A DNA stretch of 64,000 nt from Lingula anatina (GCA_051362555.1 CM120649.1:16506567-16570566), one strand, 5' to 3'. Shown: positions 8,001 to 63,262, counted from the stretch's first letter. The notes: a model not told the origin generated them from the letters alone. Made by a program: numbers and translations.

Positions 8001-11000
8001 CAAATATCTGAGTTTCCAGATAAATCCAGAAGCCTTTCATCTCTGCCACAAAAACCATGACCAAACAAAGACCAAATCATACTCACAGTGCTCTTGAATT
8101 GGCCCTGAAATGTGTCCACAATCACGCTCTTGTTCTGACTCAGATACTCCTTCCACGATTTTTCCGCCGCTTCAACATAGCGATGATGCTCTAGTGACTC
8201 ATTTTTAGAAGCCACTGTGTTTTTCAAATCTGTCCCTATCACATGGTCAGAATTGCTAGCCTCCTCGGGGGAGACGCCCCATGCTCCTTCTTCTGAAGCC
8301 ATAGGAGAGCCCTGATCTGATTGGTCCATTTCAAGGTCAAGGTCTCTTGTTGGATTCTTGGCTGTAATGACTTTGCGTTTTAATTGTCTAGTCTTGTGCC
8401 CTTTGTGTCTCTCTTCCTCAATTTTTATCCTTTTAATGTTATTAATACTGTTATCATCACCTTCGTTGTTTGCTTTATTATGCTGAGCGTAACCATCTCC
8501 GTCAAGATCACGAAATATATTGGTCATTTTTATCCTCTTCGGCGTGTGTTTTTCTACCTCCATCATCTCTTCGTCCAGGGTATTCTGGGCCATTTCCTGC
8601 TCGTGCTGTCGGTTGTCGTGCTTGGCAAACTTCTCGCTGTCTGTCTGCACCTCCTCTACCATGAACTCCTTAGCGAGCACGTTGACGTTTTTCGTCTTCG
8701 TGTCCTTCATGTACATCTCTTCCAGACCAACGAGACGGATTGAATGAGCTTTGTTGTTTGAGATCACGTTTTTCTCCAGTTTATTGTTAGACAAAGATGG
8801 ATCCGTAATCATGGTCACAGATTTTGGATCCAGAGCCGGACTCTCTGTCAGCGCCCTCTTTTTAATATCCTCCGGCACTGCCTGCATCCTGTACGAGGAG
8901 TTCTCCAAAAGCTTGTGAGAGTCCGAGCTCTGCAGGGAGGCAGATGAGTGATTGCTGTCCTCGGAATGAAGGTGACTAAGACTATCCACTGGGGACTGAG
9001 ACTGACTGTGGGCAGCCACCAGACGGTCAGTATCCTCCACCATGGCGTCCAGCTGGTCACCCTCCGTCCCAATCTCTGTGATGTCCGACTGATTGTCTGT
9101 CATCACGTCGGACTGATTGGTGCCAGCGTCAGTCACGTCTGATTGGTCATCTCTGATTGCATCTGATGATTGGTCAGTATTTGTTTCCATGGTATCCATG
9201 GTAGCAGGCTCTGTTTCAATGGTGTCATGGACAATATTGGTCTCCATGGAAACAGGGTCTACATTTGAGCATTTGATTTGTTGATTGACGGCAACTCCAG
9301 CCCCTGCATTAGAAGTTGTCACCCCCTCTTCTGTGGACAGCTTGGCAGCCCGTGTTGTATTGTTCTGTGGGGACGCCACATTCAGCTGTTCATGCAGTGT
9401 GTCGAGAAGAAGGGCCAGGAATTCCTGGCAGTCATGCTGAAACAATGGAAGACAGGTATAAGAGATGAGACCTCTAAACAAAGGTGCAATAACATTTCCC
9501 AATTCTCAACATTTACACAAAATCCAAGAATCATTTATAAGTCACAAAATGGGACTTCTCCCAAATGAAAATGCCACGTTGAGTAATTTTCCAAAATGAA
9601 AACACCCTTTCTAAATACCAGGTTGGGAAATAAAAACATGGCAACTGAAAACAAAACTAAACTACATCTTGAAGACAGGAGTTTTAACAGGTGCTACTAA
9701 CCTGCCTGAAGTCCCTGAACTGAGGATGATACATGCCCAGGATCTCCTTGAAGTCCAGAGGGTATATCCCTGAGAACTGTCCACACCAGACTTTGTGGAG
9801 GAGATGACAGAACTTGCCTGTCAGCGTACTGTCCTCAGTCAGACTCTTTCCCTGGACCTGGGGAAATTGATAGTGAAGTTTGATATTAAATTTTCAGTTT
9901 TGCCCAAGAAAGTTATTAAGTTGAAAGGGAACTTACCAAAGTGGAGATTTAAAAACAATTCTCTCATTCTATTGTTTGTAATTGCTTCTTAGATTGACCA
10001 ATTGATAACAAAATAATCACGATTACACAATTTGACATTTTTTTTTAAACTTCAGAAATAAGCATGGACAAAACAATACCGATTCACTTCTCATATACAC
10101 ACATACCCCAATTTGACATTATTTATACTTTTTGTTGAAATGACTTTTGTTGTAAAAAACTATAACAACCAAACCAGACCCTGATTCACTTACATAATTC
10201 TCCACAAAGAACTTGACCAGGTAGGGGTTGCTGAGCACACACTGCAATCCCGAGTTCATGAAGCAGGTGTTGCCTAAGTTACGCAGACCACACACTCCCG
10301 GGGTGGCACTGGAATCTGAGGAGAGAAGAAGAATATGAGGAGGAGGATGCTTGGACTTTTTCAATGTATGACAGATGAAAATGTTATAATTGTTATTCTG
10401 TAAAAACTGTACAAGGCTAATGGGGGCACGGACTTGTAAATCATGCACTGCACAAGAAATGTATTTTTCACCATTACTACTTTCACTAGTGCGCTTGATT
10501 TGGTCTTAAAGTGCAATTTAAGATCACAGATTGTCTTACATGATCTTAAACCATGAGTAAGACCATTTCTGGTCTAACATCCAATTTTAAAAGTTGTCTC
10601 CCCTTACACATTCTCCTATTGTGAGCAGAGGTGTCCTCTATTGTGAGGGGAGGAAACTGCTTGACCACTTAAGTAGATGTTAGATCATTTTTGAACTTAA
10701 AAGCAGATTCAGTCCATTTGAAGACTACTGATGTAATGATAAAGATCGTGTAAGATCACTAGTGTTCTTAAATTGCACTTTAAGACCAAATCCAGCCCAC
10801 TAGTGTTTGCTCTGACTTATGGGAATAATTGTGTTGTTTTTTATGTATTTGTATATTTGGATAAAAAATAGCCCTCTTTTTTTGAACAGTCACTTATCTT
10901 ACCCTTTACATCCTTGCTGCAGGCGTCCTTCCCCTCTCCCTGAGCCTGAGGGCTGCTCTGGTGGCCCGGGGGGTAGTAGGAGGGTAACAGCTCCACACTG

Positions 11001-14898: not shown

Positions 14899-17877
14899 AA
14901 CATTTTTATCGTCTACACACACATACATATTTTCATCATGTAACTTGTACATTTTTAATAAGATTTTTACTGACACAATCTCATCTGTAATGTTTCAGTG
15001 GGAAACCTTGTCCACCATTCAAGATAATTATTTTAGATGAAGCAGACTCTATGACTGGGCCGGCACAGGTGAGGGGATTGTGAAATGTTAAAATATGTGT
15101 ATGTCCTTGCATGTGTGTAGATATGTGTGTGTGTACTTTTGCAAGTGTGCCTATGTATATGACCTTTATATGCATTAACATATTTAAACAGTTATGCATT
15201 TTGAGTGGGGGCGCAGCAAATAGCACCAGATTGTAATACGAAATTATAGAGAAAAAACGAAACTATTAAATCAAATTTGAATAAAAGTCATATCATGTAC
15301 TGTATTAATTTTTTTCCAAATGGTATGAAAAGAATTGTCAATTTAAAATCATATTCCAGGCAGCCCTGAGAAGGACAATGGAGAAGGAATCCAAAACAAC
15401 CAGGTTTTGTCTGATCTGTAATTACGTCAGTCGTATTATAGAACCCATCACATCCAGGTGTGCCAAGTTCAGGTTCAAACCACTGGCCAGCGACGTGCTG
15501 CAGACAAGATTGAGGGAAATTGCGGAATTAGAAAGCGTTAAAATATCTGATGAGGTGAGGAAATACAGTGATAAAGTTTTTCTTCTATTTTTTTTTTTTT
15601 TTTTGCACTTTTGCACATTTATGGTGATACTGAGATGTATAGTTAATAAACAATATTGAATTTTTTTTATTCTCAAACTTATAAATGTTTGTGGAAACCT
15701 CTTGTGTTTCTGTAAGGTAATTTAAATGTTAAAACAACCTGCATCAACCTTAAATTAATTTCTGAAGGGGATTTTATTTTAAAAAAATATTTTTCATTTT
15801 TCCTCAAGAGATGTTTTCTGTTCCAGGCAATCTCAGCATTGGAAGCTGTATCTGAAGGTGACATGAGGAAAGCTATCACTTTTATGCAGAGCGTGGCAAG
15901 GTTAAAAAGAGAAGAGGAAATAACAGAAAAAGATATATTTGAAATTGCTGGGGTAGGTGGTAAACTGATTTTATATAGAAATGAGCAATTTTAGTCAAAT
16001 GGCTGCTCAAGGTCATCTCTACTAATTTCTTCTCATTACTGCAGCTTTTTATTGAACAGTTTTATAATTATTTATTTATGAATTGAGACCAAGTTTAATA
16101 ACAATTTGAATTACATCTTAAATCCCAATCATTGAGCATCACTGATATTTTTAAAGAAAATTGCAAAAGAAGGCTTTAAATTCTGATATAAATATTATTT
16201 GAATGAATAAACTACTGACTGTTATTTCTCTTGCAGGTCATACCAAATGATATAATAGATGACTTATTGAGGGTTTGTCACTCAGACTCTTACGAAAAAC
16301 TCGAGGCATTTGTAAAGGTAAGGTCATCTGCAATTATTTTCTAGTAGACTTGAATTTTTTAAGAATTATAGGAAATTGTAGAGATTGAAACAGTTAACCA
16401 CAGTGAATGCCATTGCATATTTTGTCGGAAATCCAATCTGATGCCTTACCTTGAACAGATTTTTGATATAAAGATAATAAATGATTAATTAATTCATTAT
16501 TATTATTTATTTCCATAATTATTCAGAGATAATAAGAAAGGAAATTATGTTAGAAAGATGCTCAGTGTACCAAATCACATAGAATTGTTTAAAATTGTAC
16601 ATTCCAGGAAATAATGTTAGAAGGACACTCTGCGTACCAAATCATCACGCAGTTACATGAACTTCTAGTGGTGCACCCAGAACTCGGGGACAAACAGAAG
16701 TCTGTCATCATGGAAAAACTAGCAGTAAGTTTAGTACAAGTTTCCATGCTTTCCTTCGAGAGGAAGAAAATTCCTGACTGCCAAGTTGGTTATAACAGCC
16801 TAACTCAAAGGTTATGAACAAATTTCATAAATTTCTGAAAGATTGTTCTTTACCAGCTGTTTTTGAAGAGCATTGTTTTCTAATTCCAGCAAATCAATTC
16901 TTTCCTTTATATCTCCAATGTCCATTTTATGCTTGTCTTCTATTTTATCTAGTCCCCCCCCCCCCCCCCCCCCGGGATTTCTTCTTTCAAATTTAGTAAA
17001 AGTTTAGAAACAGTTTCTGCGACTATTTCTTGGACAATGTCTTTAACAGTATTTCTGATTTCACATTCAATTTCCTCTAGTTTTGCCAAAATTAAAGATG
17101 TTTCTTCCTTTTTGCTGGTTGACTGGTGGATTTCTGATTAGCTGTAATTTTCATTCTACCTGTAGCAGAGTTCTTTGAATCTTTGTTAATGTTAAAGTAT
17201 TTTGATTTGCTGTGTGAACTCATAGTGATATGTTTATATTTATATGTAGATGTATATTGTTGAGGCAATAAGGCTGACTTGAGCTATTGCTACCCAGTGA
17301 GCACTACTCATCAACGCACCTGTCGCAATCTAGTGTCATTTATGTAGTTACATACAGTATACGTTATGATAGATATGTCAAAAAGTACTTTATGGCTAAA
17401 TTCAAGTCAGCTAAACGGCTTTCATTCGCAGGAGACGGTTAATATACACAATTTTATGTATCCGTAGATTTTGCACTTCTTACCGATTGATAGAGTTTGT
17501 AAGAAATTTTTGGAGTGCTCTTTCGGTAGCTGTCTCCCTCTTGGCCTTGTTCTCGTATCCTCGTTTTTCTGTAAAGGTCACAAATGGGGTTTCTTACAAT
17601 TTAGTATTAGGTCAATATTGGTGTTGTTCCATCAATTCATTGTTATTTAATCATTAAAATAAAAGTAGGTGATTGGTTTGGTTAAGATTATCAATCTTTT
17701 AACAGCTTCTGTGTTGAAATTTCATTTGGGGATGTTTTATTTATATAAAGAAACCAAAAAGTTTGTTTTTTTCTCCAGATTGTTGACAAATGTCTAAGTG
17801 ATGGAGCAGACGAGTACCTTCAGATCATGGGACTTTGTACCACCATCATGCAGCAGATATGTCACGGAGAGAAATAA
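13254..17877 (+). CDS. RFC4: Replication factor C subunit 4 (clamp loader AAA+ ATPase), 10 coding exons, 364 aa
   Basis: Exons 13254-13381, 13751-13829, 14419-14498, 14714-14833, 14999-15068, 15360-15554, 15827-15952, 16237-16317, 16608-16724, 17779-17877. Motifs: MHAFLKG start, PWVEKYRP, Walker [40 protein letters not shown] ([10 protein letters not shown]), [16 protein letters not shown]. Confidence 0.97.
13848..14270 (+). repeat. Degenerate ~30-bp tandem repeat (core CTGKCACACCTAACACATTCT) in an RFC4 intron
   Basis: Recurring CTGGCACAC/CTGTCACAC..CTAACACATTCT units start just after the donor at 13830. Confidence 0.75.
17251..17622 (+). ncRNA. Candidate structured intronic RNA (two long hairpins joined by long-range pairings); family unassigned
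   Basis: Complementary helices read by eye: 17251-59/17440-48, 17272-83/17401-12, 17498-510/17587-99, 17542-48/17574-80, plus cross-pairings 17299-305/17514-20, 17289-94/17525-30, 17431-38/17530-37. G-U pairs favour the plus (RFC4 sense) strand. Confidence 0.5.
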
Positions 17878-20504
17878 TCGAAGTCTGGGAAATTAAGGGA
17901 TCGGAATTATCTTCATTTGAACAATGCCCCACTTTCTCTGTGAAAAAAAAGGGAATTCAGAAAGTTTCTTGGATTTTGTATATTCCCTAGGAGTGGAGGA
18001 AAATCAAGGAAAAGAAGTGAAAAATGTCTTGTATTTTTGTAAGCATTCTTTTTTTTTTTTTTTTTTCATATCTGTGGAAGTTGGTCTTTGAAAGGACCGG
18101 TGGTTGCGTCATACAAACATTCTGTGGAATATTTTTGACCTGGCAAGCACTTGTCGATGTTGAAAGGTGTGGGAACAGTACCGGCTGTCGATTGGAGATT
18201 GTTCTGAGAATGTTTTCTTTTTATGTCCTGAAATATCTGCTTTTGGGGAAAAAGTAAAATATTTTTAGTACAACTGAACAAAAAATATTTAATGCAACAA
18301 CTGAAAAATTCAAATTCAAATGAAACCATCCAGAAGATGAAAATTCTGAAAAAATACTTCTTTGTTTTCTCATCATCCATTTATTACTGTGCTTACTGAG
18401 AAGTTTTTCTCAGCATATAAAAAGTGTGAATTTAAAACATATTTAAAGCCCTTGCTATGTCATACATTAAGTGCTGGGCATGATAACGTGATCAGTACAA
18501 ACACACTGAGTGTACAGCAGGCCACTGTATATTAACAGAATATAAAACATCTTCATAAAACTTTGCATAGGTATATATATTGTAAGGAGATCACTTTAAA
18601 GCTGTTGATAAAAATAGTTATGTTAGTAATTCTACTTTTGAATCAGTTACGGTACAATTTAAATTAAAAGATTATTTGTTTCTGAAAGTTATAATTAGTT
18701 CATATACCTAATAATGCAAAGTTATCACAATGTTATCTGTTCCTTAACCCTGAACAGTGGGCTATATATATAGATATATGAAATGTGAATATACCTACTT
18801 TATAATAAAAATTCACTGTACACTATATGTGATTGTATTCAAAATTATATCTAGCACATGAAACCACTACTCCCACCCTATGAGACTTATTCTGAAGGCA
18901 AAACAGATGAATTGTTGGCAATAATTAAGGCCTTTTGGTGACCATGTTTTAATACTGTTGTCCAGAAAGTCCAGTGTCAATCTTGCCCAGTTATTGACTG
19001 CTTGAAATGTCTTAAGAAAAAAAAATGTTTACCGTTTTGTTTGGGACCCATTTTCACCTTAGGTTTCAAAAATGTGTGAAGTCTTGTATAATTCAAAAAC
19101 ATTAGTTTCTGTTACTGGGGGATGTTTAAAAAATAACTTATTTCCCAAGAATTGGTCCTAACTTAAAAGACAAGAATTTTAGTCTTCTTTGACTAAATTA
19201 AATGAAATGATTAGCCTGTTTTACAGCAAGAAAGACATTAACATTTTTGTCCAAAATTTAGACCAATTACTTCGGTACAGTTCTTTTGGGAAACAAACCT
19301 AGGCAAGCAATTCCAATTTTCTTTTTTGAATTCAACAGCAAGCAAATCCAAGTGTTCTGTCAGGACTGAAATTTAATGTGTCAGCTGATTATAACTGTTA
19401 AAGTATATATACTATCTAAAATTTCAAGCGCTGAATACTCGTATCGCTAGTATTTAAGTATTATGTCAATACGCTTTGAGGTCAAGCTTATCTCAAAACT
19501 GTATTTCAATTTCATAAGTTCTAAACTTATCTACACTGTATACATTAATACTAATATCCTGTAAAAACTAATCTGATTTATAAAAAAGTTGCTGACAGTG
19601 ACAGGTGTTTGATTATTGCTTTTTACAATAACACAATACTCGCAACTGAATAATACTTGATAAATGGTTCTGATAAATATATAATTTCATAAATTTAAAT
19701 AAAATTCATACAACAGACACAGAATCGGTCATCAATGCCACTATTACTGTTATTACTCTTACTAATACCATTTTGAAATTTTGTTTTTAACAAAATTATG
19801 GCAACTCAAGGGTCTCAATCTGTCTGTAAAAAAGTGAATATGCATTTTCAATTGCACAGAGAATTGTAAAGCCTTCTTCACATGGGCGGCAGCTCATCTT
19901 TGTCTGTTGCTTGACTAAAGCTCACTTTCTTCAAGAAAAAAAGGTTATTCCCCTCAATCTGATTCCAAAAGTCAGTCATGTATCCTGCAATCATTCATAG
20001 TTTTAACTTAACATTTTCCAATCTAAAATTCCCAACTCAAAATTCCTGCCTTCGTGTCACTGTAAATATGACAAGTTTTTCTCCTGTACCCAGACTCGTG
20101 CTCATGACCACTGTGTAGCCAATAACGTCCCAAATGTTAAACAGGGTAAAGCTTACCATAGTTTTATCTTTAGTTAAAAGGTGGCAGCACTGCTTTACAA
20201 CTGTCTCCATGCACTGCATGCTTTCCAGTAGTACAGGATCTGTTTTAGGTATGTCATGGAAGCAAACGATATACATTTTGGTATAAGTGTAACACTTGTA
20301 TGTAAAAATTATGCAAGCCTCCATATACTCCTACTGGTTTTAGATCCATCTGCATTGATCTTCATCAAATAATAGACCCTCTGAAGAACATTGTTATAAT
20401 CCTGAAAGATAAAAGACAGATCCAGCTATTTTCGCACTGAATTGTACATATTTCCAAATTAATCGTGCCACCTTTTCTGCCATTTATTTTGGGAACATTT
20501 CCCC

Positions 20505-25700: not shown

Positions 25701-28700
25701 GCACTAGTTTAGTTTTTTTCCTTAAAAGCAGTATCACTAACTTAATCAACTTGACATTATGATCTAACAACATTTCCAATTTTATAAGCAACTTTCCCCT
25801 CCAATTTATAATAATTATTGCAACTGTTACAATATTGCAAAAGAAGAAAATACACTGTAACTGACTGGGCAAATCATACCAGTAATGACTCAGCATTTTA
25901 GCAATACTTACATTAGCATCCTCCCCCTCCAGTCTGTAATTGAGATCTCCAAGGAAGAAGATATGATGAAACTGATTGGTCAGATCAAACATACTCAGCT
26001 GTTTCTGGCCTAGCGACATACCTTTCAAAATGTCGCGGTAATTTTGATTTCTCCTGAGATAAAAAATATTAAGTTAATAAACATGAATTCCATGATCATT
26101 TTTTTCTTTGGTTGGAGTTGATTTCTTTAATGCACAAATTTGTGGAATATATAAAATCTTAGAATTTAATTTAAGTGATCAAACTCCCCCAGATTTGGAT
26201 CAATCTACATTGAATGATACTTCCATTGAGTAGTTTGTCTATCTGGTGACATCAGACAGCATATTTCCAGTGCAGGTCACACTGCCTTGCCTTGACTGTA
26301 GGTCACCTACCTGTGGTTCTTTTCATGTCCAGACGTCAGATGACAGTTTATGAAACAGAAGGATGTTCCGCCAAAGTAGAAGGAAACTCCCACTGCTCCC
26401 TTGTTGCCTGTGCAAATGGTGGAAAAAAATTAATTCATGGAATAGAAAATATTCCCGAAGTCTTGTTGTTTTACAATGTGTCAAAATGCTTTTTATTTCT
26501 TGTCATTTTTATATAACATTTGCTAAATACTTCTTTTGTAAGTATCTAATGATAACCACCTTAAAACAGAAACAATTCTCAAACAATATAGGAAACAAAG
26601 GTGGAAATTTGAAGCATTTAACTGGTGTTCAGTGGCACATTACAGCTTCTAATATTTATTTGAAAGGCAATCTGGTTTATTTTGCATGAGCACATCCAAG
26701 ATATCGGAAAAAAAGTGGTTGGCAAAGTGGTACCCATCCAATTTTTTTCTAACTTTTTTTTTTTAAATTGTGCACTTCTGAGTAGCACTTTACAGTGACC
26801 TACCCAATGCGTTAGCAATGCCAGTCTTGACTGTAGAGTGCTGTACATGGCTGATCCTGTTCTTGTGCTCTGGTTTCACCAGTACCAACAGCCGTATACC
26901 CCACAGGCTACAGATTGTCACCTGAAACAGAACACTCGACTATAGCAGACTAGACTAGACTATAGCAGACTAGACTAAACTAGACTAGACTATAGCAGAC
27001 TAGCCTAGACTAGAGCATGCATCATAGGGATACCCCACAGGCTACAGATTGTCACCTGAAACATAACACTTAGACTATAGCATACTAGACAAGACTATAG
27101 CAGAGTAGACTAAATTATAGCAGACTAGACTAGACTATAGCAGATTAGACTATAGCAGACTAGACAAGACTATAGCAGACTAGACTAGACTATAGCAGAC
27201 TAGACAAGACTACAGCAGACTAGACAAGACTATAGCAGAGTAGACTAGACTATAGCAGAGTAGACTAGACTATAGCAGACTAGACAAGACTATAGCAGAC
27301 AAGACTATAACAGAGTAGACTAGACTAAAGCAGACTAGACAAGACTATAGCAGACAAGACTATAGCAGAGTAGACTAGACTGTAGCAGACTAGACAAGAC
27401 TATAGCAGACTAGACTAGACTATAGCAGACTAGACAAGACTATAGCATACTAGACTAGACTATAGCAGACTAGACAAGACTATAGCAGACTAGACTAGAC
27501 TACAGAAAACTAGACTATGGTTTAATAAAAAAAAGACTACAGTAGCTAAGACTAAAGTATGCTAGACCAGATACTGTGGTAGATTAAGTTGGACAAGACT
27601 GTAGTAAAAGCACTCCTGTTATAATGAAACAAGTCAAAAAAATATAAATTAACTGACACAAACTTAGGTAATCACTCTTCTAAAATATCACAATTTTTCT
27701 ACAAGTCATCATTCTTGTTAGATCTAAAATATTTTTCCATTTGGCACTTTTTAAATGGTATCTTTAAAGACGATAGGTTCAGAGAGAGTTAAGCTAATGG
27801 TACCAACTTCCAGTGCAGATAAATTTGATATTTCCAAACTATCTTCTGTTGAAAAAAGAAAAAAAAAAGAATGAGGAATTTGTCAAAAAAATGACATTTC
27901 TGGAGTTACACATGACAGTAGACCTTCAAATAAATCAACAAACTGCAGTAAGTTTGCATAATCTTACTGTATGCAAATCAATATTCAAAGCATTCCTGAT
28001 GGCCTCCGTCACACGTTTCACCCAGTCTTTCTCCGCCAGGGCGCTCTCCTGTGTTCCCACCACATAGACATCATGGGGGATCATCCCCAGGGTTTTATCT
28101 CGGCTCTTCCCTGCGCCATAACACTTGAACCACGGGGTGAGGTTCCAAAATGGCGTGGCATCACCTGGAAGATTGTTGATTTTATCATTTTTTATTTACA
28201 TTAATTTTGTTTGTGGTTAACACAATTAGGATATATTTTTGATATCATATTTTCGGCTGTAAAACTAAATTAAGTTCATGAAAAAATAGGCATTTAATTA
28301 AGTATATTATGAGAAAAAATAAGCATGCTGAATATGTGTACCAAATGGATATTTGTTTGAACTGACCATATCAAACAGCATTTAGCAGAAAAAAATTGAT
28401 GGATTACAGGTTTATAAGTCTTTAACAACAACAGGAATCAAGAATGGCATTTTAAACTTAAGCTTACCCATGTTCCATGAGCCAACGAACAACGACACAT
28501 GATCCACTTCAGGGTTGACAGAATGCATGCTCTTCATTTGCTGAATGAGCTGACAGAAACGTTCCCGCTCACGGACGTTCTCAAACTCGTAACTTTCATC
28601 CTTCTTCCGCCCCTCTATCACTATATCCAGCTGCTTGTTATTCTTGGTTGATTTGATTACTTGTAATACTGTTGGGAGAAAATAATTTCAAAATCAATAA

Positions 28701-34700: not shown

Positions 34701-37136
34701 TGCACTCAGTGTGTTAGGTGTGACAGAACACAATGTGGATGAGATGCATTCAGTGTGTTAGGTGTGACAGAACACAATGTGGATGAGATGCACTCAGTGT
34801 GTTAGGTGTGACAGAACACAATGTGGATGAGATGCACTCAGTGTGTTAGGTGTGACAGAGCACAATGTGGAGAAGACTAGTGTAACAAAATAAACCACAA
34901 TGTGTACTGATACAATACCTCTCTAAGTTCACTGCAGCCACTGCCAGCAGCCTCTGCAGCTCAGGGAGATGGGAACTGGTTCCTGATTTGATGGTGAGGA
35001 CGTCATTCTTAGCGCCATAGTCAGCATATTCTTGTAAGGCACCAATAAATGGGCCCTCCACACTGCAAAAGAAAAAAATGCAATGTTCTACCTTTTAGTC
35101 TTAATAAAAAATACAAATATTGATTTGCATTATGCTTAATTTTACTGGAACTATCACTTACTTTGATAACTCCAGCATTGTCAGTTTTTGCTGGAAATGG
35201 CGCGTGATGTTGTCATCATTTGGGCTTGACTCCAGAGTGTCAGCAGTCTCCAGTGACGGAGATGTAACAGTGGGAGGGACCTGCTCAAAGTCTGACTCAT
35301 CATCATCATCGTCTGAAATAAAGATATTAAAAAGTGCACAGCTCGTTCCCTTTCTGGTGACGCAACCAGACACAGGCAAGGGCAATGAGACAGACATAAC
35401 TGTGTCTGTACATAAAAAATGTTTTAAGAAACAGAGATAGGGTGAAGCAGGTTGACCTGTTGCTGACAAAAACAAACTTTTATATAGATCTCTGCCATGA
35501 CTGGTATCTGCAGCTCAAAACTTTATCTCATCTAAATACTAAACATACGTCCACAGTCTGTTGCTATACAATAGACGTTACTCATAAAAACTAAACAGAA
35601 AGGTATATGCTTTATTTATATGGTTTTTAGATTAATTCACCAATCAAGGCAACAACCAATCAAACACTTCTACAGTAAATACCTGTATCACTATCTGGCT
35701 CCTCAGTCAACTTGGCCTGTTCTGGAGGTTTCTTCTCCTCCACGGGATACTTTAGAGCACAAATCAACCCGTTATTACTGCCTCGGTTCACATACTCGTG
35801 GATAAGCTGTGACAGGTCAACATACTTCCTCTCCTGAACCCCCTTCTCTGATTGGACAGACAGTTTTCCGTCCTGACCAGTCAGGATGCGGTATTGGTGT
35901 ATTCGACCCTGGTACCTGAAGAAGAAAGGAGTACGATTTGTTTAATCAGTGAAGAAAGACCTTCAGCCTCAGACTTATAAGTAACCGAAATTTTATACAA
36001 AAGCCATGACCAGACAGCATTATTCTTCATCATCATTGTTCAAATATTGTAGCTGCTTGGCAGTGGATTTATCGTACATCTATGAGTGTTCTCCTCTTTT
36101 CTTTCTTGGTGGAGTATATATAACAGACACCTTCACCCATTTGAAGTCTGCATGACCTAGCCAATGAGATTCTACATGAAACGCCACAACTCAAGTACCC
36201 TCTACCAGGGCGAGTGATAGATTTTTTACAGATATTCACAGATATGTCTCTAGCCAGATAGATGGTCATTTAGGGCTCAACGCACCCTGTTGAGAAATCT
36301 CAAGGCTGATTACATGGCTGATAATTGTTTACATAACTGCTCAGGCACTGCCACTTAGCAGGTCCAGTCTAAGGCTCTATTCCCATAGATTTTAGATCGA
36401 TCTATCCCCGCGGGGAGTCTCACTAGATTACTTTCAGATAATCCGACTTAAATGTCCGTCCCGCCTACTACAAGCTGTAAGAGGGTAATTAACTTTCGTG
36501 TCCGCCCGGCTGACAGCTATTTAGCGTGAACCCCCAGGGAGTTAGGTCGATTCAAAATAGGTCGATCTAATCTATGGAAATGGGGTGTTAGTCTGCGTGA
36601 CAGCAATCAAGACAGTTAATTACTCCGACTTCAATCACTTGCTCTTCTGTGACAGATAAAAAAGCCTTAGACTGGTTGTGTAACGAGAAGTTATCACATC
36701 ATTGTGAAGCTCAGCTCATACAGAGCAAGTACAAAGCCTTTGGCGCACGCAGAGATAATTGTTTCCACATGGGATTCCTCAACAGGGTGAGCTGAGCCCT
36801 AAATGACCCTCTATCTAGCTAGAGACATATCTGTGAATATCTGTAAAAAAATCTATCACTCGCCCTGGTAGAGGGTACAACTCAAGTCTATTTGTCATTT
36901 GATGAAATGTGAAACCTTCATGTACTAGTAAGCTTTATTCTACAGAAGTAAAAAATTATTTTAAAAACAGTCTTAAAACCCAAAGTCCAAACTACTTACA
37001 AAATACACAGAGTATACGCCCCCTGAATACTCTCACTGTCACGTATGAGGAAGCTGCCATCTTTCCCTGACTCCAACAGGAGTTCTTCAGCTTTCAGGCG
37101 TGTAATGTTCTTAAAATGAGCTAGTAGTTGGGCCAT
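20505..37136 (-). CDS. INPPL1: SH2-containing inositol polyphosphate 5-phosphatase (SHIP; INPP5D/INPPL1 co-orthologue, SHIP2-like with C-terminal SAM), ~1220 aa
   Basis: Exons 37136-37000, 35915-35683, 35312-35162, 35062-34919, 34237-34138, 33804-33724, 33098-33048, 32288-32151, [31785-31647 or 31203-31050], 28668-28468, 28164-27968, 26921-26804, 26407-26311, 26053-25912, 25612-25513, 25106-25018, 24658-24577, 24155-23961, 23595-23504, 23135-23048, 22658-22562, 22292-22225, 21888-21176, 20714-20505; phases sum correctly. SH2 (GKDGSFLIRDSES), FVGSWNMG, GNKGAVG, FINCHLTSG, FFLGDLNYRL, FPPTYR, PSWCDRTLW, SSDHKPVF, Pro-rich tail, SAM (WLLELGLPFYNDIFLENGWD..HRKRIL). Confidence 0.95.
26938..27520 (+). 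repeat. Composite 5-bp-based minisatellite (TAGAC / TATAG / CAGAC / AAGAC) in a SHIP intron
   Basis: About 580 bp of TAGACTAGACTATAGCAGAC-type units, interrupted at 27030-27063 by a copy of the neighbouring exon start. Confidence 0.95.
30702..30874. mobile_element. Hairpin-forming MITE-like element, same family as 42741-42908
   Basis: Nested inverted repeats AACAGATC/GATCTGTT and ACCCACTTGAAAGCTTG/CAAGCTTTCAAGTGGGT; the reverse complement aligns with the element at 42741. Confidence 0.75.
31050..31203 (-). CDS. SHIP PH-like domain exon, variant B (154 nt, phase 0-1); tandem paralogue of variant A
   Basis: CTGCAG|GTTAGG...AGCAAAA|GTATAT; open frame encoding VRNNSSVWGKSKSTVRAAVTLTVDVQEGRLFAVKANKADSLDDSNTFLHSK. 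Confidence 0.78.
31647..31785 (-). CDS. SHIP PH-like domain exon, variant A (139 nt, phase 0-1)
   Basis: TCCAG|GTAAAG...GATAAAA|GTAAGA; encodes VKIISNRTCKTSKATVTVDIQAGKLFAVKASKADALDNSNTFVHDK. Confidence 0.88.
34492..34870 (+). repeat. 44-bp minisatellite, ~8.5 near-identical copies
   Basis: TGACAGAACACAATGTGGATGAGATGCA(T/C)TCAGTGTGTTAGGTG recurs at 34501, 34545, 34589 ... 34853. Confidence 0.97.
36196..36877. mobile_element. Non-autonomous Mutator-like (MULE) element with ~105-bp TIRs and a 9-bp target site duplication
   Basis: TIR TACCCTCTACCAGGGCGAGTGATAGATTTTTTACAGATATTCACAGATATGTCTCTAGC... is mirrored at the right end. TSD CAACTCAAG at 36187-36195 and 36878-36886. No transposase ORF. 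Confidence 0.88.
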
Positions 37137-40051: not shown

Positions 40052-55365
<15,314 letters not shown>

Positions 55366-61000: not shown

Positions 61001-63262
61001 TGTAAATGGTTTGGTTGGATTTGTCGTCGGTGTAGGGTTCAAATGCCCCCTTTCCTAAAAGAAATAAAACTCTTTTAATACTGATAGAAAATGGTTGATC
61101 GAGTTAATAAGCAACACGTTCTCTCTCAGCAAACAGCCTGCACACGCGTTCTGAAATGCACATCATACAAGTATTTCATTTTCAAAATTACACAGTGGGA
61201 TAGAATCGCCACTTTCACATTCATTCTCAGTCTTTAAGATGCATGTGTTGTTTCCAAAAATGTGATGGCCATTTTTAACAAACATTTTAAAAAGAAACTT
61301 TTCTCACAGAAACGTTTTTTAAACAATGGTTTATGATGTTTGTTGTTGTTGTTTTTTTTTTTTTTTTTCACAGAAACGTGTTACATTGGTTAATGATGAT
61401 TTTCTCCGGTAAAAAACAGGTTCAGTTTTTCATCTTCTAAAAAAATCTACTCGCATACCGTTAATCAACATGGACTGTGGTTTATTGTCTCCGTCTCTAT
61501 GGTGATGCGCTACGAAACGGTTCACTGTGACGTCACCCAGCCAATCCGTGACGATGATATAGTGTTCTGCGAGATCATAATCGTAAAGGTCATGGTGGGG
61601 GTCAGCTCCCGGCGGAAGTCGGACAACCAGTGGGCCGAAGACGCCGTCGGCACGCTGCATGCCGGAGTGGGCGTGCCAGAAATGTGTCCCCTTTGTAGTG
61701 GCTTTGAATCTGAAAAGGAGTCGCGTGCTTCATTATAAGGGCATTGAATGGCAATTTTGTTCACTGAGAGCTGTAATTTTACTGGTCCACCTACTTTTTT
61801 ATTTCCCTTGAAAACCTCATTTAGAACTTGGGTGAATAAAACGATTTACTCGCATTGCCAGTCCTTTTTTTTTTCGTCAAAGTTTAAAACAACGGTATCT
61901 AATTCAGATGGAAACTACATCTTTTGAAAAATCGCTGATCAAAATGGTCAAAAGTTATTTATCGAAAATTTATCAAAAATGAGATTTTATTTCGTGTTTC
62001 ATCTTAACTTAAAAAAAAGAAGAGATACGTACGCGTTGCCCCCATAGTAAGTTAATTAATTATCACATTTTCGGCAACTTATAAACATAACAATTAATCT
62101 AACTCTATATTTGGAGATGGCACACCAAATCAACACTCACTCGTATCGGAATGTGCTATGTGAGGGTATGGGACACTGTGTAATCATGGCGACACCATCC
62201 ATGTGCGGTGAGTCTTCCTGCAGTATGCCGTGCCAGTGTATGGTGACTCCATCAGACGTGGACATTTTGTTCTTCACGTTGACGATGATAGTGTCGTTCT
62301 GGCAGACCTGGGAATTGACGGTGCCGGCTGTTAGTGTTTCAGCTTTAGTAGAAAACATATCCAGAATATCACTTACCCAGCAAACACGTAACGTTCGGAT
62401 CACGTGGCTAGCACGTTGCTATGACGTTACAATATATGTGGTAGCAACGAGCTAGCCACGTGATCCAAACGTGACGTGTTTGCTGTGTAGCTTTAGATTT
62501 CCCTCCTATTTGAATGTGATGTCGTGTTGTTTTACTGAATTATCAATTCTCTGCCGTGCATCTTGGAAATATTGGTAATTTCCAGTTACACGTGCAATGA
62601 ACATTAACTAATTTCTTCTTGCAGCGCCACTAAAATGCAGCACATTGAGCCATTTTCATTGCATAAGTATCATCTAAATTATTTTTATAGATACAAATGT
62701 ATAATAAGTAGAGTTATATATATAACTGTGCTTATTAACTTACATGGGGACACAGACATCTTTTGAAAAATAGGTACAATGAAAAAATGTCCCTTATTCA
62801 AGGTACCCAATTGTAGGTTACAATTATAGGCCCTATATAGGGCCTATTGATTTATTTAATATAGGCCTATACAAAATAAAGAAAATATATTTTATCCTAA
62901 TAATTGACTTATAAATTTAACCGAAAACTTCAAAAAGCACTCCTGATTTCTGGATATTTTAAAAATTTTCCAACAGCCAGTATTCTAGTAAAAAAAAAAA
63001 AAATAATCACTTACAAATATCCCTGGTCCTGGAAGGCGCCTGTTGACCACAGTGATTGCCTTTCTGACGCCATCTGCCGCCACGCAGTGCGGCCTGTCGC
63101 AATCCGTGCCGTTAAACGGGCAGTCGTAACAGGCCTTGCTCAGCACGTAGTACCACTCCACGGCAAAGTCGTACTCGCAGGTCCTCGGGGTCTCGCCGTC
63201 CACGCAGTCTCTAAGGCAGGGGTGGCTTAGGTCGTCTGCGTCGTAGGTGCTCGTTTTGCCTT
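58031..63262 (-). CDS. Laccase-like multicopper oxidase with N-terminal Cys-rich region and hydrophobic C-terminal tail (possible GPI signal); first coding exon not resolved
   Basis: Exons 63262-63015, 62307-62141, 61709-61459, 61054-60915, 60625-60350, 60165-59884, 59486-59301, 58911-58764, 58302-58031. All four Cu motifs: [32 protein letters not shown] (Met axial ligand). Cys-rich [19 protein letters not shown]. Tail [20 protein letters not shown]. Confidence 0.93.
62374..62489. mobile_element. Near-perfect ~115-bp foldback MITE in an oxidase intron
   Basis: CCCAGCAAACACGTAACGTTCGGATCACGTGGCTAGCACGTTGCTA pairs with TAGCAACGAGCTAGCCACGTGATCCAAACGTGACGTGTTTGCTGTG; TA on both flanks. Confidence 0.82.

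Follow-up and report, generated by a model that had tools for sequence, protein, structure and literature searches.

The last RFC4 intron and the probable insert within it

The DNA analysed is a stretch of 64,000 nt from Lingula anatina (GCA_051362555.1 CM120649.1:16506567-16570566; hereafter, the window), in which a putatively folded stretch at 17251-17622 is the subject of this study. The preliminary description had placed this stretch in the last intron of RFC4, and the assignment was borne out by reads spliced from 16724 to 17779 over a GT..AG joint (31 in run X10 and 4 in run X13) and by the preceding exon, which matches Pfam Rep_fac_C (RFC C-terminal domain). The host intron and the insert within it are as follows.

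16725-17778, plus strand: last RFC4 intron (host), from the GT..AG joint in RNA reads and Rep_fac_C on the preceding exon
16820-16828, unstranded: candidate 9-bp target-site duplication, left (direct repeat)
16829-17716, unstranded: probable mobile-element insert, ~888 bp, its ends placed from the copies and the candidate target-site duplication
17717-17725, unstranded: candidate 9-bp target-site duplication, right (direct repeat)

Contigs sharing words with the element, from four of nine runs, were compared with it at 80% likeness. Extra copies about 80% alike were detected over 16833-17480 in three DNA-like runs from three studies, and the summed contig depth over this interval was 843 versus 46 in X1, 180 versus 16-28 in X4 and 414 versus 68-96 in X9. 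Single related contigs in X1 had depths of 278, 152 and 86; the contig of depth 278, over 17108-17282, showed 31 differences and six gaps. As contig depth does not equal copy number, we claim several related copies and give no count; within the 64-kb window no other copy of the element was found. The preliminary description had itself named extra copies marking a transposon fragment as grounds against its interpretation, and diverged copies at several-fold single-copy depth are indeed present. We consider a mobile-element origin of the stretch very likely.

The ends of the insert are less sharply drawn by the copies than its middle. Beyond 17467 the related contigs drop below 80%, and no related copy at 80% was found over 17481-17640. 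The likeness of loose contig ends reaches ~16830 on the left and ~17490 on the right, where one loose end shares a 13-letter block (17477-89); it is only through this loose end, to ~17490, that the second hairpin of the folded stretch is tied to the family. The 9-bp repeat stands where likeness to the related copy stops. Such a repeat would arise by chance in 6-8% of cases (376 of 5000 shuffles and 263 of 4612 random window pairs), and no empty-site joint was present among the joints listed for four runs. Of the earlier statement that the stretch has no terminal inverted repeat or target-site duplication, the second part is doubtful: the two copies of the repeat, 16820-28 and 17717-25, flank a larger insert.

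Other repeats were observed in the window. A second small repeat lies at 16428-16508, within the RFC4 intron before the last (contig depth 136 versus 20-50 in X1), MITE-like inverted repeats lie at 36222-36850, 10484-10805 and 62374-62489 (arms of 81, 64 and 48 nt, respectively), and 46079-51154 holds an interleaved repeat cluster with periods of ~161 bp and ~337 bp and a duplicated 3-kb block. Over the RFC4 exons (15825-17878), RNA run X16 is more diverged, with 18 of 22 reads at 90-95%; compared with three other runs of the same species label, this suggests a second species or lineage.

A broken minus-strand reading frame beside 17251-17622

The preliminary description had noticed neither that the stretch is multi-copy nor that it lies just ahead of an ORF on the minus strand.

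16815-17223, minus strand: ORF interrupted into three pieces, N-terminally basic and then coiled-coil-like; ATG at 17223, 3' part missing
17224-17716, minus strand: DNA read as the 5' leader of this ORF from its position relative to the ATG

The ATG at 17223 is 28 nt from the folded stretch. From it, three stop-free pieces run down to 16815, and the encoded N-terminus is basic and serine-rich, followed by a coiled-coil-like segment. Two lesions interrupt the ORF in the window copy, namely, a deletion of 31 nt at 17107/17108 and a C20 run at 16954-73. Across both breaks the ORF is in frame in other copies and in one allele: contigs with 31 further letters at 17107/8 and contigs without the G run both keep the frame, as traced by hand. 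The 31-nt deletion segregates (depths of 14.3 and 11.3 in X4). When the related copy was compared with the undeleted allele over nine codons, six of seven differences fell at third positions; with a partial tenth codon included, the figure is six of eight (binomial ~0.02, calculated by hand). The kept frame and the third-position excess show that the element family has been under selection for its protein.

No relatives of the ORF protein were found in protein searches, the Atlas or PDB, and the representative-protein search gave one match only, to an unrelated bacterial-type coiled-coil repeat protein. Pfam returned only weak, sub-threshold coiled-coil matches to the ORF pieces, and the ORF ends before an RRM would begin. 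No reverse transcriptase was seen at the element. Scans with the ORF pieces recovered 0 of 595 metagenome, 0 of 423 genome and 0 of 61 viral candidates, and structure-pattern scans of metagenome, viral and genome contigs gave 0 each; as these collections hold little animal DNA, the empty scans mean little. The element is probably of the LINE class, an assignment that no search supported, and we take the ORF to resemble ORF1 of type II LINEs. The domain description used is that of PMC4120745; in excerpts of this paper and of PMC5786205, type II ORF1 consists of a coiled coil, an RRM and a CTD, and LINEs with ORF1 only are known.

Several short signals were also noted on either strand. The leader may contain a 73-nt minus-strand intron, with a donor-like G/GTAAGA at 17483, a branch-like sequence at 17442 and an AG at 17411; the donor-like site falls inside the 13-letter block common to the related copy, and a related-copy contig in X3 reads through the possible intron (17483-17411) unspliced. 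A minus-strand TATA-like box at 17747-17741, ~30 nt outside the proposed right end of the insert, and a plus-strand AATAAA at 17658, 36 nt past the folded stretch, may both be due to chance in AT-rich DNA.

Helices at 17251-17622 and their alleles

17251-17448, plus strand: domain 1, with closing stem 17251-59/17440-48 and 12-bp helix 17272-83/17401-12
17289-17305, plus strand: segments a and b, complementary to 17514-30 (duplex of -22.6 kcal/mol)
17482-17622, plus strand: domain 2 (hairpin 2 of the preliminary description), with outer bulged stem 17482-90/17612-22

Within 17251-17622, every helix of the preliminary description was found where it had been placed, as were ACACAA at 17446 and ACA at 17596; both ACA triplets sit within the named helices. 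The strongest helices are the 12-bp helix, an 11-bp helix at 17431-41/17527-37 and a 14-bp helix at 17497-510/17586-99, which includes four G-U pairs. The three cross-pairings that had been described between hairpin 1 and a strand of hairpin 2 are all present, but they compete with one another, and the third (c) is longer than described: its 11-bp form, 17431-41/17527-37, overlaps cross-pair a and competes with it and with the closing stem of hairpin 1. Of all these helices, the nested ensemble populates only the 12-bp one (0.91) and cross-pair c (0.97). The described G-U bias to the RFC4 sense strand was reproduced, with 11 G-U pairs inside the named helices for the plus strand and none for the minus strand, counts to be read with the facts that the helices were chosen on the plus strand and that composition already favours G-T there (14.3% versus 9.4%). 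In the flanks of unbiased Watson-Crick runs of at least 7, G-U pairs occurred in 5 (plus) versus 2 (minus) of 12. A second copy of the 3' arm of the 14-bp helix (7 letters, 17477-17483) also pairs with the 5' arm (-7.0 versus -12.8 kcal/mol), giving another competing fold for this helix.

Next to shuffled sequences, the plus strand has a modest excess of helices. With pseudoknots allowed, the sum over the five best mutually compatible helices gave z -3.39 on the plus strand (1 of 300 shuffles) and z -2.24 on the minus strand (9 of 300), and with the whole intron as the unit the plus-strand value was z -2.24 (2 of 60). As the region had been picked for its helices, these z values are upper bounds. 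On the same sum, 12 of 344 tiles of the window beat 17251-17622, several of them lying in inverted repeats or in GC-richer DNA. The comparison of folding energy with shuffled controls, which the preliminary description had proposed, went against it: the nested MFE is within the shuffled range (z -0.67, plus; z -1.61, minus), and hairpin 2 alone gave z -0.42 and -0.83. The register of segments a and b, Watson-Crick at 14 of 17 positions, was equalled by 23 of 300 shuffles.

These values bear on whether the helices are merely a chance set, chosen post hoc in the T-rich strand of a repeat, with no conserved fold even in the parent element. The MFE values of z -0.67 and -0.42, the lower whole-intron z of -2.2, the 12 better tiles and the change of segments a and b in a related copy (at a loose end of a contig) would all fit such a reading. 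The five-helix z of -3.39 speaks against it, as does the rarity in shuffles of the ordered-helix match described below. So does the pattern of the copies: the likeness of related contigs extends over 17108-17282 and over 17403-17467 but is lost between these intervals (a joint from 17282 to 17403 in X3; loose ends in X1), so that the 12-bp helix is better conserved in its two arms than in its loop. We think a chance set rather unlikely; judged from the five-helix z and from the kept arms, the fold is probably real at the level of the family.

The alleles of this copy tell of its present state. Among the 40 variant rows listed of 142, eight fall in 17251-17622, four of them in helices, to which 38% of the bases belong. 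Among the variants listed, three of these four break a plus-strand pair (17252, 17273 and 17517), two of the three being G>A and leaving a wobble pair on the minus strand; the fourth, 17509, found in all four runs, changes G-U to G-C. In addition, one X9 contig of haplotype depth jumps from 17547 to 17664, so that 17548-17663, with the 3' arms of hairpin 2, is absent or replaced. Allelic divergence within the element is ~0.5-2.7%, equal to that of the flanks. The helix-breaking alleles and the haplotype lacking or replacing 17548-17663 make this copy look like a passenger, likely inert, spliced out and degraded with the intron.

The same alleles weigh on the possibility that the segment serves the host as an RNA encoded within the intron, namely, an atypical repeat-derived H/ACA RNA, a stable intronic RNA or a splicing switch. 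The G-U bias to the RFC4 sense strand and the ANANNA at 17446 would suit such an RNA, and the ACA at 17596 stands 15 nt past the upper stem and 22 nt past the loop, near the H/ACA spacing of 13-15 nt (pocket) and 24-28 nt (loop) upstream of the box given in excerpts of PMC5207380. Yet both boxes, expected to be single-stranded in H/ACA RNAs, take part in base pairing when their helices are drawn in the strongest form. The H box stands ~50 nt away from the 3' hairpin, and the 5' hairpin offers neither an upper stem nor a loop where the spacing would call for one, its upper stem being 33 nt off. In addition, the 3' arm of the outer stem falls past ACA+3, and the 3' loop is without a CAB motif. 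As to expression, run X3, whose spliced joints mark it as RNA, gave one 360-nt contig over 17219-17576 (depth 4.3), close in extent to the folded stretch, contigs carrying neither strand nor ends; against its weight, X3 also contains a further piece of intron at depth 2 and contigs of related copies at depth 5-8, and its exons reach depths of 46-111. No RNA run was listed as carrying the element in a run search by its words. Raw reads were aligned from four of nine RNA runs (6-25% of each; polyA, oligo-dT or unspecified libraries), with RFC4 exon depths of ~1-31 and introns almost empty. Three stranded runs, polyA-type or unspecified and sampled at 6-25%, showed no sense-strand depth over 17238-17642, and X10 gave a minus-strand trace (depth 0.95) at 17481-17561; being shallow, polyA-type or unspecified and almost empty in introns, these runs cannot speak to non-polyadenylated RNA. 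No report of an RFC4 intron as a snoRNA host was found in open-licence papers.

A confident Rfam match, which the preliminary description had named as removing the novelty, was not found: Rfam 15 returned 0 at the gathering threshold in the whole 64-kb window, the best score being 24.2 bits against a threshold of 41.5 and located outside the element, and no ribozyme family in full Rfam matched at E up to 10. Together with the helix-breaking alleles and the haplotype skipping 17548-17663, the lack of an Rfam match makes a host RNA very improbable. The preliminary description thus stands confirmed in part as to what was seen and supported in part as to what it means. Of its "folded functional RNA", the plus-strand fold is still plausible, with "ribozyme-like" as the best of the options offered, but the options in which the host owns the RNA (H/ACA, scaRNA, stable intronic RNA or splicing switch) find no support, since alleles break or remove the helices.

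Known ribozyme and RNA classes were also considered. The hatchet ribozyme was rejected, with only 1 nt from CAA (17581-83) to UGGG and no Rfam match; in excerpts of PMC6561176, whose numbering was used, P1, three conserved linker bases and a 5-bp P2 precede the UGGG block. Hammerhead, group I/II, RNase P/MRP, U17 and telomerase RNAs were dropped by eye, and the Rfam scans for them were empty.

An HDV-like helix order and the parent element

17431-17599, plus strand: core with HDV-like helix order (descriptor match)
17431-37/17531-37, plus strand: P1
17497-510/17586-99, plus strand: P2
17517-19/17528-30, plus strand: P3, with L3 at 17520-27
17542-48/17574-80, plus strand: P4

The helices of the 3' half follow the order P1, P2, P3, P1', P4, P2' with G at position 1, which is the helix order of HDV ribozymes. 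P1 is 7 bp, J1/2 58 nt, P2 14 bp, P3 3 bp and abutting P1', and P4 7 bp, followed by C-A-A-A; L3 is 8 nt, pyrimidine-rich and contains CG. Directly after P4, C17581 occupies, by position only, the J4/2 place of the catalytic C. Two features depart from the class: 6 nt (17511-16) stand between P2 and P3, which in HDV ribozymes stack directly (0-1 nt), and the strand after P1' is CUCU, facing a pyrimidine L3, so that with no purine after P1' not one Watson-Crick P1.1 pair is possible. Since the P2/P3 spacing and P1.1 both fail, we do not file the core as an HDV ribozyme. The canonical HDV descriptor gave 0 matches on both strands of the 64-kb window. A relaxed descriptor, loosened after the sequence had been seen, gave two sites in the 128 kb of window strands and two matches in 1000 shuffles; its stricter form matched only 17431-17599 in the window and 0 of 1000 shuffles. 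On the minus strand the descriptor gave 0 matches. The sole other relaxed-descriptor site, 28091-28386, was treated as chance background.

The P3 hairpin is exactly what cross-pairs a and b (-22.6 kcal/mol as a duplex) would occlude, a relation more suggestive of two alternative states than of a single triple pseudoknot. In the closed state, the strand at 17514-37 would be paired to the upstream loop; in the other, it would be taken up into a compact P1/P2/P3/P4 core.

Judged from sequence, 17431-17599 may work like an HDV ribozyme despite the failed features. The plus strand of the parent would then have been a variant HDV-like self-cleaving ribozyme antisense to the ORF, with segments a and b as an upstream off-switch on P3/L3, a predicted cut before G17431 (17430/17431) and C17581 as the putative general acid. 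The helix order, the G start, the lengths of P1, P2 and P3, the pyrimidine L3, the C-A-A-A after P4 and the rarity of the ordered match (2, relaxed, and 0, stricter, of 1000 shuffles) are consistent with it, and precedents appear in excerpts of the literature: active HDV-like ribozymes tolerate a 1-nt P2/P3 insertion (PMC5640933) and, next to a U:A pair, a single P1.1 pair of non-canonical type (PMC13635239), a tolerance that in these papers does not reach the departures seen here, a long J1/2 with an extended P2 is known (PMC4908430), and six LINE clades carry ribozymes (PMC5786205). On the other side stand the empty canonical descriptor, the 6-nt gap, the P1.1 that Watson-Crick pairing cannot form, the post hoc loosening, the absence of any Rfam ribozyme family at E up to 10, the allele at 17517, which breaks P3, and the position of described retroelement ribozymes, which the excerpts place at the 5' terminus of the element's RNA and not antisense to an ORF. 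We regard self-cleavage of this kind as distinctly unlikely.

The explanation that we prefer, with moderate confidence, is that the stretch is the leader of a truncated multi-copy protein-coding element, most likely LINE-type, lying antisense in the last RFC4 intron, that the helices likely survive from a cis-acting fold of the parent's RNA, and that this copy is likely an inert passenger. The helices, the diverged copies, the ORF kept in frame by other copies, the splicing of the intron and the helix-breaking alleles are observed; the element class, the ends of the insert, the formation of the fold and its role in the parent are deduced. A LINE-like element would have inserted antisense into the intron and later lost its 3' part, and the remnant would leave with the spliced intron and be degraded. 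In the parent, the leader fold would be cis-acting, controlling RNA end-processing or access by a two-state switch; self-cleavage at 17430/17431 would be the most specific version of the end-processing role. The wobble bias points to the strand antisense to the ORF, which is not where the LINE ribozymes of the excerpts lie; an element copied from this antisense strand, with its left end truncated, would be consistent with the bias.

As a host RNA the stretch is of no weight, being most likely a transposon remnant. It is of value because it points to an unclassified family of repeats, in whose leader a conserved, pseudoknotted RNA with two states may reside, and family copies at ~20% divergence make covariation directly testable. 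If the fold self-cleaves, the HDV class would be widened beyond its two-pseudoknot definition, and nature would provide a case of a ribozyme gated within its own molecule and lying antisense to the ORF of a retroelement. The fullest form of this proposal has a slim chance of being right: an animal mobile-element family with a new ribozyme variant antisense to a coiled-coil ORF1, with no P1.1, a 6-nt P2/P3 junction and a 200-nt upstream off-switch domain pairing with the catalytic loop, in which the plus-strand RNA may be the one copied or inserted. No description of such an element was found in the parts of the open-licence literature covered, namely, listings and main-text excerpts.

Compared by description with LINEs that have a type II ORF1 (L1, CR1 and L2) and with ORF1-only HAL1 (excerpts of PMC4120745 and PMC5786205), the element shares dispersed related copies, a candidate target-site duplication and a leader of ~0.5 kb followed by an ORF that opens with basic residues and continues into a coiled-coil-like segment. 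It differs in that the RRM and CTD, ORF2 and a 3' tail are absent at this locus and that its ORF family is unconfirmed by search; it keeps the 5' side of the ORF and not the 3' side, the reverse of ordinary LINE 5' truncation. With AluACA RNAs (excerpts of PMC5207380) the stretch has in common a repeat-derived, intronic origin, a long 5' hairpin and an ACA ~15 nt past the upper stem of the 3' hairpin; unlike them, it has paired boxes, a 50-nt hinge and a 3' loop without a CAB or BIO motif.

The likeness to the HDV-like ribozymes of non-LTR retrotransposons and fungi (excerpts of PMC3774820, PMC5640933, PMC13635239 and PMC4908430) comprises the order P1-J1/2-P2-P3-L3-P1'-P4-C-P2', the G at position 1, the long J1/2, the extended P2 and the association with a mobile element. 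The 6 nt between P2 and P3 (0-1 in those ribozymes), the missing P1.1, the orientation antisense to the ORF and the complementary upstream domain set the present core apart. Finally, Penelope-like elements, as presented in excerpts of PMC8557442, PMC4209133 and PMC7761336, have ribozymes in terminal repeats, may or may not carry a coiled-coil ORF1, and occur with introns retained and as truncated copies in inverted orientation. The element at this locus is unlike them in having no hammerhead match in Rfam, no RT/GIY-YIG seen and no tandem pseudo-LTR in the window, whereas copying from the strand opposite the ORF would be a layout nearer to that of Penelope-like elements.
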